Source: a virus (Duplodnaviria > Heunggongvirae > Uroviricota > Caudoviricetes). From it: a DNA stretch of 37,915 bases. This document shows, in pieces, positions 24,368 through 25,528 of this stretch; positions within the stretch are counted from its first letter, which is position 1; the number at the start of each line of letters is the position of its first letter. The stretch spans positions 1 to 37,915 of IMG/VR virus record IMGVR_UViG_2913123054_000005; one strand, written 5' to 3'. Made by a program: the position numbers and the translations under genes. The notes under the pieces were generated by a model. The model ran no database searches. It saw only the letters and a list, made by a program, of their open reading frames with translations, and was not told the DNA's origin.

Positions 24368-24625
24368 TCAAACACTACCCTGTTGATTATTTCTCAGAGG
24401 CGGACTTGACTCCCAGGGGAAACTCAACTTTCCGTTAAAACCACCAGCAGACATCCGTTCAATTTCCACAGAAATATCACTGAGCCGTTCTTCAAGCTCT
24501 GCTTTTTCTTTTACCAGACGGTTATAGCGGCTTAGATGAAGCTTTTGCTGCTCCAGCCAGTCTTCAAGCTGTTCAACAGTCATACCAGGGTTAAAAAAAT
24601 ATGGCTGCTGCTTTTCGCCCTGCAT
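24368..24625 (-). CDS. Hypothetical coiled-coil protein (86 aa) in the Q-to-holin cargo slot
   Basis: ATG at 24625 with strong SD (GGAGG, 6 nt spacer) directly after the terminator hairpin. The track's longer 108-aa ORF would include the terminator. Confidence 0.6.
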   Translation of the reverse strand: MQGEKQQPYFFNPGMTVEQLEDWLEQQKLHLSRYNRLVKEKAELEERLSDISVEIERMSAGGFNGKLSFPWESSPPLRNNQQGSV

Positions 24626-24635
24626 TATTGACCTC

Positions 24636-24665
24636 CAGAAAAGCAAAAACCCCGCCGAAGCGAGG
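24636..24665 (-). terminator. Intrinsic terminator downstream of Q (tR'-like)
   Basis: Minus strand cctcgc-UUCG-gcgggg hairpin followed by tttttgcttttc. Confidence 0.55.
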
Positions 24666-24715
24666 TTTGTTATGATTTCGTTAACGGCAGACATACAAAG
24701 CCCATCGTTGGGAAA

Positions 24716-24744
24716 ATCTTATCCATATTTTTTGAAAAATGCAA
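24716..24744 (-). promoter_or_regulatory. Candidate late promoter (pR'-like): -35 TTGCAT, 17 bp spacer, -10 TAAGAT
   Basis: Minus strand ttgcat at 24744..24739 and taagat at 24721..24716, about 30 bp downstream of the Q stop and about 70 nt upstream of the terminator. Confidence 0.4.
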
Positions 24745-24775
24745 GCATCATGTCGCCATCTTCGGCTAAAATCAT

Positions 24776-25528
24776 TTATCTTGTCACTTTTCTCAATTGT
24801 TTCTCTGCATATGCTTCTTCCTGCCAGCACTTTGTAACCAGTTTATCAATGACATCTGCATATCCTTTGTACCACTGATAATCAGTCAGGTCTGGTACCA
24901 GCTTCTGGACATGATGCCGCGCCAGTGTGGTTGGTAAACGGCTAAACCGGTTTCCATTGCAACGCCCACAAACCTTATAAACAGGCGTGCCATGAAGCCG
25001 GGTTCTTTTTTCATCCAGGACAATACCTTTACCCTTACACCCTCTGCACGCTGTGCTGACTTCTCCCTTACCATGACAATGCTGACATAGTTCCTTCACC
25101 CACTCTTCTTTGATAACAGATTCCCCGCTTCTGGAGTGTTTCACCACCTCGCGCAATACATTATGAAATCCAGTACCAGCACAATGCTCACAGCGAGCCT
25201 TACTTGCCGCAGACCTGGAATAATCAGCAAAGGCAAAATTCACAAGGTAAGGGATGATCTGTAACCGGGTTTCTTCACTCAATTTGTTCAATGTCGGGTT
25301 ATCCAGTGCCATCGCGTAATTAAGCAGACCTTCAATCGCAAACTGAGGATCCTGAACACCAACTTTTGCCAGGAATAAGGCAAACCCAAGCGGTGCTTTC
25401 GACTGCACCATCCCCTGCGCAGCCATCACATCTGTAATTGTTAAACCACCCGAGCCTGTCGCCGGTGCGTCATCACTCAATTTTGGAGATTTTGGGGAGT
25501 AATATTTTGGTAAAGCTTCAAGGTTCAT
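24776..25528 (-). CDS. Antitermination protein Q-like (zinc-binding, 250 aa)
   Basis: Several CxxC pairs (CEHCAGTG, CQHCHGKG, CRGCKGKG, CGRCNG); position immediately upstream of promoter/terminator and lysis genes. Confidence 0.7.
   Translation of the reverse strand: MNLEALPKYYSPKSPKLSDDAPATGSGGLTITDVMAAQGMVQSKAPLGFALFLAKVGVQDPQFAIEGLLNYAMALDNPTLNKLSEETRLQIIPYLVNFAFADYSRSAASKARCEHCAGTGFHNVLREVVKHSRSGESVIKEEWVKELCQHCHGKGEVSTACRGCKGKGIVLDEKRTRLHGTPVYKVCGRCNGNRFSRLPTTLARHHVQKLVPDLTDYQWYKGYADVIDKLVTKCWQEEAYAEKQLRKVTR

Follow-up and report, generated by a model that had tools for sequence, protein, structure and literature searches.

Organization of the late regulatory region

The window analysed here is the whole 37,915-nucleotide (nt) stretch of the IMG/VR virus record IMGVR_UViG_2913123054_000005 (Caudoviricetes), in which we looked specifically at a small open reading frame (ORF) of 85 amino acids (aa) lying between the gene for a late antiterminator, Q, and the lysis genes, and at the candidate promoter and terminator that precede it. 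In this part of the window the phage genes lie on the minus strand, as do all the promoter, terminator and ORF elements of the cassette, and the order is the 250-aa ORF at 24776-25528, a gap of 150 nt, the ORF at 24368-24625, a gap of 145 nt, two holins, a GH19 endolysin and Rz; in relatives these are followed by HNH and terminase genes. The elements were assigned as follows.

24776..25528, minus strand: late-gene antiterminator Q of the lambda family, 250 aa (PF03589, expectation value (E) 1.9e-53; phrog_127, E 7e-109)
24744..24739, minus strand: candidate -35 hexamer of the late promoter PR', TTGCAT, read from the sequence (3/6 to consensus; conserved in E. coli and Salmonella relatives, mEp460 and the Stx2k phage)
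24722..24738, minus strand: 17-nt spacer and candidate Q-binding element (QBE); 11/17 positions equal the lambda PR' spacer in an ungapped comparison
24721..24716, minus strand: candidate -10 hexamer of PR', TAAGAT (4/6 to consensus, equal to the score of lambda TAAATT)
24701..24709, minus strand: predicted sigma-dependent pause element AACGAT plus GGG (AACGATGGG), 6 nt past the -10; sequence and spacing identical to lambda PR'
24640..24709, minus strand: predicted short PR'-tR' transcript of the lysogen, ~65-70 nt, from the promoter and terminator positions
24637..24668, minus strand: predicted intrinsic terminator tR', called by the terminator scan; stem AAACCTCGC/GCGGGGTTT, UUCG loop and U-tract TTTTTGCTTTTCT
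24636..24632, minus strand: Shine-Dalgarno (SD) sequence GGAGG, 6 nt before the ATG at 24625 (GGAGG, GGGGG or GGGAG in relatives)
24368..24625, minus strand: first late gene, 85 aa, one long helix, PHROG 3501/ST64B Sb50 family (phrog_3501, E 6.4e-54, its residues 1-84 aligned with positions 1-84 of the 85 in the profile)
23836-24222 and 23568-23849, minus strand: next in the late region, holin genes for products of 128 aa and 93 aa (PF16931, E 1e-34; PF05449, E 7e-20)

The region is very probably a Q-dependent late cassette of the lambda type from a lambdoid Escherichia coli/Salmonella prophage, together with the first late gene. Such a cassette is made up of a Q gene, PR', a sigma-dependent pause element, a terminator and the late genes (PMC9388147), and the window shows every sequence-level feature of this definition, with a candidate promoter in the place of PR'. 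The same study assigns PF03589 to the Q-lambda family, and the protein that the sequence-only reading had called Q-like is a member of that family, aligning with lambda Q (PDB 7UBM chain Q) by phmmer at E 3.3e-38 in two segments, 1-120 and 160-250.

Between these segments, at residues ~121-159 (window 25052-25168, minus strand), the protein has a Cys-rich insertion of ~40 aa relative to lambda Q, with additional CxxCxGxG motifs and a sub-threshold match to the DnaJ central domain (PF00684, E 2.6e-07). The insertion amounts to a duplicated zinc-ribbon 'arm', the counterpart of which in lambda Q contacts the QBE and sigma region 4.

Candidate late promoter and pause element

The motif TTGCAT, 17 bp, TAAGAT that had been proposed as a promoter behind the Q-like gene is present on the minus strand at 24744..24716, with TAGGAT as the -10 in most E. 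coli relatives. The lambda QBE sits between the -35 and the -10. Lambda PR' reads TTGACT-17 nt-TAAATT-6 nt-AACGATGGG and the window TTGCAT-17 nt-TAAGAT-6 nt-AACGATGGG, the lambda counterpart of the pause element lying at 788-796 of the lambda locus (L004); by analogy with lambda, transcription is predicted to start at or next to 24709 on the minus strand. The composite pattern TTG-N20-TAnnnT-N6-AACGAT, which was picked post hoc, had a single match in the window, against none across 100 shuffles.

The hexamers might instead be chance matches and the hairpin behind them the terminator of the early-right operon after Q, with the late promoter lying elsewhere. They agree with the consensus at only 7 of 12 positions (3/6 plus 4/6) and a consensus promoter scan gave no call, and because the hexamers alone are weak, the case for the promoter rests on homology. 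This explanation is nevertheless very improbable, as the motif lies in the sole intergenic gap from Q to the lysis genes, its geometry and AACGATGGG are identical to those of lambda PR', and the block is 96-97% conserved over phages that are otherwise mosaic. By Megablast, identity over the final ~25 nt of Q, the candidate promoter and ~27 nt at the start of the predicted transcript was 95.8-97.5% in mEp460, SfV, 15 Stx2c-converting phages and phiSTEC1575-Stx2k. Relatives with other late regulators also have a promoter-like site of their own in the same place, such as TTGAAA-16-TATGAT in ST64B, which agrees with the consensus at 10/12 positions. TTGCAT-17-TAAGAT would thus be PR' by homology, and the proposal of a promoter-terminator pair arranged for Q holds in its lambda PR' geometry, pause element and terminator ahead of the lysis genes, its weak point being the hexamers taken alone.

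A second exact copy of AACGATGGG occurs at 20963-20971 of the window (plus strand) in a context that is not promoter-like; it is probably there by chance, since two copies also arose in 10 of 100 shuffles.

Terminator, predicted leader RNA and Shine-Dalgarno sequence

The hairpin AAACCTCGC-UUCG-GCGGGGUUU is found at 24668..24647 (minus strand) and is followed by UUGCUUUUCU; the terminator scan counted 9 pairs, 5 of them G-C, and the hairpin folds at -13.1 kcal/mol. Measured from the -10, the hairpin begins 47 nt on and the U-tract ends ~78 nt on, and therefore the terminated RNA would be ~65-70 nt long. The sequence-only reading had recognized the hairpin correctly and had placed it too far away, at about 70 nt.

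The stem persists in relatives as CCTCGC/GCGGGG or CCCTGCC/GGCGGGG and has a G-U pair that is conserved, the loops occur in eleven forms of 2-5 nt, and the folding free energy ranges from -13 to -18 kcal/mol. The 3' arm is near-invariant, and the support for the hairpin consists of the preserved stem, the freely varying loops and one-sided G-C/G-U changes. The hairpin of mEp460 and the Stx2k phage, AACCCGCC-loop-GCGGGTTTTTTT, has diverged but is no nearer to the promoter or farther from it. The idea of a sharp mosaic break ahead of the terminator was considered and then softened, as the alignment indicates that the terminators of these two phages probably derive from this hairpin by divergence.

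The predicted short PR'-tR' RNA would be an analogue of lambda 6S RNA and of StxS, a small RNA (sRNA) which arises by early termination of the late transcript of Shiga toxin (Stx) phages and whose discoverers proposed antiterminated promoters as a general source of sRNAs (PMC7547250). That this RNA is the key product of the lysogen, acting in trans as StxS does, seems unlikely. The architecture predicts a constitutive, terminator-ended RNA of ~65-70 nt, made in the same way as StxS, and the leader folds at -20.4 kcal/mol (z -2.2). Compared with Rfam, the leader matched no family at the gathering score, and its sub-threshold matches to Hfq-binding sRNAs (istR, E 0.03) were probably driven by the terminator; moreover, the stretch from the pause element to the hairpin differs between the promoter classes of the relatives, which argues against a conserved seed. 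A role of this kind is compatible with the late-cassette interpretation and is not an alternative to it.

The only Rfam match above the gathering score in the window was STnc100 at 32865-33087 (plus strand; 48.3 bits against a threshold of 47). The 601 nt around it are 99% identical to the region of yfdP (YfdP family phage-associated protein), which is widespread in E. coli prophages.

The 85-aa first late gene

The strong SD sequence and the ORF behind it that had been noted from the sequence are both confirmed, with a product of 85 aa in place of the stated 86 (86 codons including the stop). The same ORF is annotated as an 85-aa hypothetical coding sequence in RefSeq and in Salmonella phage 118970_sal3. 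A profile search and a structure prediction had been proposed as checks. The profile search returned a full-length match to phrog_3501, a family whose function is not known, and the AlphaFold (AF2) model gave one long helix at residues 17-60 with disordered ends, in agreement with the coiled coil suggested earlier. Because the prediction is a single helix, the fold search was uninformative. The product is probably a small, single-helix, oligomeric protein.

The protein is 75% identical to Sb50 of ST64B, and its homologues form 58 clusters, all from Enterobacterales and all annotated as hypothetical. An exhaustive profile search of 1.84e9 representative proteins recovered 31 members of the same narrow family only and no bridge from it to a known family, and a profile search of genome contigs with the alignment of the family confirmed no locus. 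Within the family the start Met and the N-terminal motif QQPYFFNPGM are near-invariant. A longer reading of 108 aa from the ATG at 24694 was rejected; it would cross the terminator, the Met at 24625 is where the profile and every homologue start, and the sequence upstream is not conserved in frame.

Selection on the gene was computed by codon segment over 25 distinct coding sequences, as the ratio of non-synonymous to synonymous polymorphism (pN/pS), with the following values.

Codons 1-36 (no overlap): pN/pS 0.13, pS 0.78
Codons 37-50: pN/pS 0.27, pS 0.47
Codons 63-89: pN/pS 0.83, pS 0.38

The ORF is thus a real gene under purifying selection. The lower pS and the relaxed pN/pS of the 3' half are due to its overlaps with the partner gene and antisense terminator described below.

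The ST64B record (AY055382, L010 2399-2758) gives sb50 a length of 119 aa by placing its start ahead of the terminator hairpin; this annotated start is probably wrong, the conserved start giving 85 aa.

Position of the small gene across loci

To place the gene, about 100 loci carrying it were fetched, and the counts given here are over 97 of them. It was the first late gene, right behind the late regulator, in all 97, and in most of these loci a terminator, a U-tract and an SD sequence directly precede it. The regulator itself varies: it is of the Q-lambda family in the window and in Citrobacter and Klebsiella phages, of the Q21 family (PF06530) in an Enterobacter prophage and of the Q82 family (PF06323) in E. 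coli loci with a 78-aa version of the small gene (hhalign E 5e-22), while sb49 of ST64B and a 216-aa protein of Hafnia have no Pfam match. The lysis cassettes downstream also differ between loci. As the SD sequence directly follows the U-tract of tR', there is no room for a promoter of the small gene's own, and the gene must therefore rely on readthrough of the terminator.

The sequence-only reading had described the ORF as cargo, in a slot that carries Shiga toxin genes in lambdoid phages. The slot can indeed hold such genes behind this very Q-PR' module, as stx2k A/B follow it in phiSTEC1575-Stx2k. An exchangeable passenger (a moron or lysogenic-conversion gene) that benefits the host as stx does would also agree with the other content that the same Q-PR' block precedes elsewhere (cargo, tRNAs and stx2k, or other ORFs in mEp460), with the slight dip in G+C to 0.42-0.46 from ~0.50 in the neighbouring genes, and with the absence of a known function for the gene. 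It is quite improbable all the same. The gene lacks the space for its own promoter between U-tract and SD and would be silent in the lysogen, whereas Stx-like cargo has its own promoter and is expressed from the prophage; only a weak hairpin follows the ORF; and the family is confined to phage late regions, where it stands first in every locus examined, behind four kinds of late regulator and ahead of several lysis cassettes, a fixed position unlike the pattern of sporadic cargo. Seen from the Q-PR' module the downstream content varies, whereas seen from the small gene the position is fixed with any Q family or lysis cassette. The cargo interpretation is accordingly not supported: the gene is a conserved first late gene, normally one half of a convergent pair, and very probably not an exchangeable passenger or Stx-like cargo. 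Two ST64B variants have been reported to differ in SB49 and SB51, with SB50 not among the differing regions listed (PMC3901673), which fits a mosaic picture in which the regulator changes and the small gene is kept.

Several loci have further genes in this region. Klebsiella phage contigs carry a tRNA-Thr(UGU) between another late terminator (AGGCCCAAGG..CCTTGGGCTTTGTCATTT) and the small gene (L077 2855-2930, also L079, L085 and L089), a placement that resembles the tRNAs ahead of stx2 in Stx phages. The Enterobacter prophage has a reverse-strand DUF6650 gene between its Q21-family Q and the terminator with the small gene (L005 3114-3860, minus strand of the locus); its strong PADLOC matches (PDC-M68A, E 9e-28; HNH/SAVED-type endonuclease effectors) make it a candidate defence gene in a late regulatory region. 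Proteins of 207-216 aa hold the Q position in ST64B (sb49, L010 1745-2368) and Hafnia (L098 3229-3879), and directly after them come a strong promoter-like site (TTGAAA-16-TATGAT), a terminator and the small gene. As sb49 does not match the three Q families in Pfam and the Hafnia protein has no Pfam family on record, the two may represent a further family of late regulators.

A convergent ECs1072-family partner

The 3' end of the small gene is overlapped by what is left of a gene on the opposite strand, and two further features were assigned here.

24238..24438, plus strand: 3' remnant of a convergent ECs1072-family gene (NF033230/phrog_5286; NF033230, E 5.9e-09, 36.1 bits, profile positions 81-140 of 142)
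24482..24515, plus strand: putative degenerate antisense terminator of the lost partner, within codons ~38-48 of the small gene

The 36.1 bits of the remnant lie below the curated NF033230 cut-off of 70 bits, as for a truncated and not an intact member; its C-terminal part is 72% identical to the full-length protein P0084, while the N-terminal ~85 codons, the start and the promoter are deleted. In relatives the full-length partner encodes an all-alpha protein of 144-156 aa and is convergent, its 3' end lying over the 3' end of the small gene. It was found in 44 of the 97 loci, always convergent and overlapping, and the remaining 53, the E. coli/118970_sal3 clade that includes the window, have only a remnant. 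Conversely, all six loci fetched through an ECs1072-family protein also carry the small gene. The small gene is ancestrally paired with a convergent, 3'-overlapping ECs1072-family gene and normally forms half of a two-gene unit; in this prophage it stands alone because the partner was deleted. In most E. coli copies a further deletion, which apparently ran between CTGAAA repeats, ends exactly after the stop codon of the small gene.

In every locus that keeps the partner, a hairpin, AGCCGnTC..GAGCGGCT, with TTTTTCTTT behind it, is encoded on the antisense strand of codons ~39-48 (EKAALEERL) of the small gene and has a folding free energy of -11.7 to -19.5 kcal/mol. Judged from its sequence, this hairpin is a putative intrinsic terminator placed to end the partner messenger RNA (mRNA). 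In the clade of the window an A43E change breaks it, and -6.9 kcal/mol is left.

A weak terminator-like hairpin, AGCGGAGAAATTCTGCT followed by GCTTCTTCTG, lies just past the small ORF at 24336-24352 (minus strand; 7 pairs, 3 of them G-C). It falls within the remnant of the convergent gene, and the deletion variant that is commoner in E. coli lacks it. For ST64B, the GenBank record leaves the convergent ECs1072-family gene of 144 aa (L010 2688-3122) unannotated.

The loss of the partner raises the possibility that the small gene is itself a functionless leftover, which had no role apart from the partner and survives only because the deletion is recent. Of the partner only a remnant is left here, and still less in most E. 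coli copies, its antisense terminator has already decayed, and some copies of the small gene have premature stops or the 70-aa form. We consider this explanation doubtful, as the great majority of the 53 partner-less loci keep an intact ORF and the larger deletion stops exactly after its stop codon; codons 10-60 in the partner-less clade show ~4 non-synonymous and 3 synonymous changes, which are too few to decide either way.

Proposed course of late transcription

Under the late-cassette interpretation, RNA polymerase in the lysogen would start constitutively at PR' (~24709, minus strand), pause on the -10-like AACGAT and end at the UUCG hairpin; the product would be an RNA of ~65-70 nt and the downstream genes would stay silent. 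After induction, the Q encoded upstream would load onto the promoter-paused polymerase, and the Q-modified polymerase would ignore the terminator and go on through the 85-aa gene, both holins and the endolysin to Rz/Rz1 and the structural genes. The 85-aa protein would then be made late only.

Some observations weigh against this account. Besides the weak hexamers described above, searches of Pfam, NCBIfam, PADLOC and PDB returned nothing for the protein, and its fold matches were uninformative. The partner-less clade includes a few copies with premature stops (W71*, Q82*, a 70-aa form), and the C-terminal changes within this clade are mostly non-synonymous. The small gene may thus be partly dispensable or decaying here, slowly, unless some further role retains it.

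As to what the protein does, we tentatively suggest, from linkage and geometry, that the small protein and the antisense late transcription might together switch off or neutralise the ECs1072-family product at the onset of late expression. More specifically, and with a lower likelihood, the small late gene and the convergent ECs1072-family gene could form a two-gene cis-antisense switch module that heads lambdoid late operons. The ECs1072-family protein, with for example an exclusion, defence or regulatory role, would be expressed in the lysogen under its own promoter, and the antisense terminator inside the small gene would end its mRNA. Q-driven late transcription would silence the partner by head-on transcription and antisense pairing, and the small coiled-coil protein, as the first late product, would neutralise the partner protein left over. 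The window would then hold a decayed module, with the partner deleted, the terminator broken and the small gene orphaned. ECs1072 appears in one microarray table, where it changes with growth phase. No functional study came up in literature searches on phrog_3501, sb50, ECs1072 or the accessions, and the literature searched had nothing on the fixed first-late position of the small gene over three Q families, its interlock with the ECs1072-family gene or the antisense terminator. If the pair is a functional switch, it would be a new small lambdoid module and an example of dual-strand coding constraint; if it is not, the gene is one more phage ORF without known function.

Comparison with known systems

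The closest parallel is the lambda cassette of Q, PR', 6S RNA and tR'. Both have a regulator of the same Q family with the promoter, in the window a candidate one, directly after it, a 17-nt spacer, a TAAnnT -10, an identical AACGATGGG 6 nt past the -10 and an intrinsic terminator before the lysis genes. They differ in the -35, which is weaker in the window (TTGCAT against TTGACT), in the leader (~194 nt in lambda, ~65-70 nt in the window) and in the extra ~40-aa Cys-rich insertion of the window Q. The stretch from tR' to the holin holds a conserved protein gene in the window, whereas in lambda it holds non-coding sequence and the doubtful orf-64. StxS follows the principle predicted for the window, a constitutive PR' and tR' yielding a short RNA in the lysogen, with a different Q family.

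For the small gene the nearest known case is ST64B, in which Sb50 has the same place directly behind the late terminator. ST64B differs from the window in its late regulator (sb49, without a Pfam match), in its holin and in having kept the full-length convergent ECs1072-family gene; of the ECs1072 family (NF033230, PHROG 5286), the plus-strand ORF of the window matches only the C-terminal 60 profile positions. The family of the 85-aa protein is thus catalogued but uncharacterised.

Some E. coli chromosomes and Salmonella phage 118970_sal3 share the whole 601-nt region at 98-99% identity, and part of it matches 1139 of 5426 complete E. coli genomes. For annotation, the analysis fixes the candidate late promoter, pause site and terminator for a prophage type present in about one fifth of complete E. 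coli genomes. The regulatory module is already known, the same one being present in the sequenced Stx2c and Stx2k phages and in mEp460. These phages and SfV share essentially the same Q-PR' module with the window, and the Stx2k phage also has the same upstream order (LexA-like, RusA, KilA-N, DUF968, Q), but they have no 85-aa gene, a diverged terminator and quite different downstream content. In phiSTEC1575-Stx2k the Q-PR' block (97.5% identity) is followed by ~2.3 kb of ORFs, three tRNAs and stx2k A/B, the block lying 2.3 kb upstream of the tRNAs and toxin genes. The same Q-PR' module thus controls the expression of stx2c and stx2k in some Shiga-toxin phages, and in the prophage studied here it would control that of the 85-aa first late gene and the lysis genes behind it.

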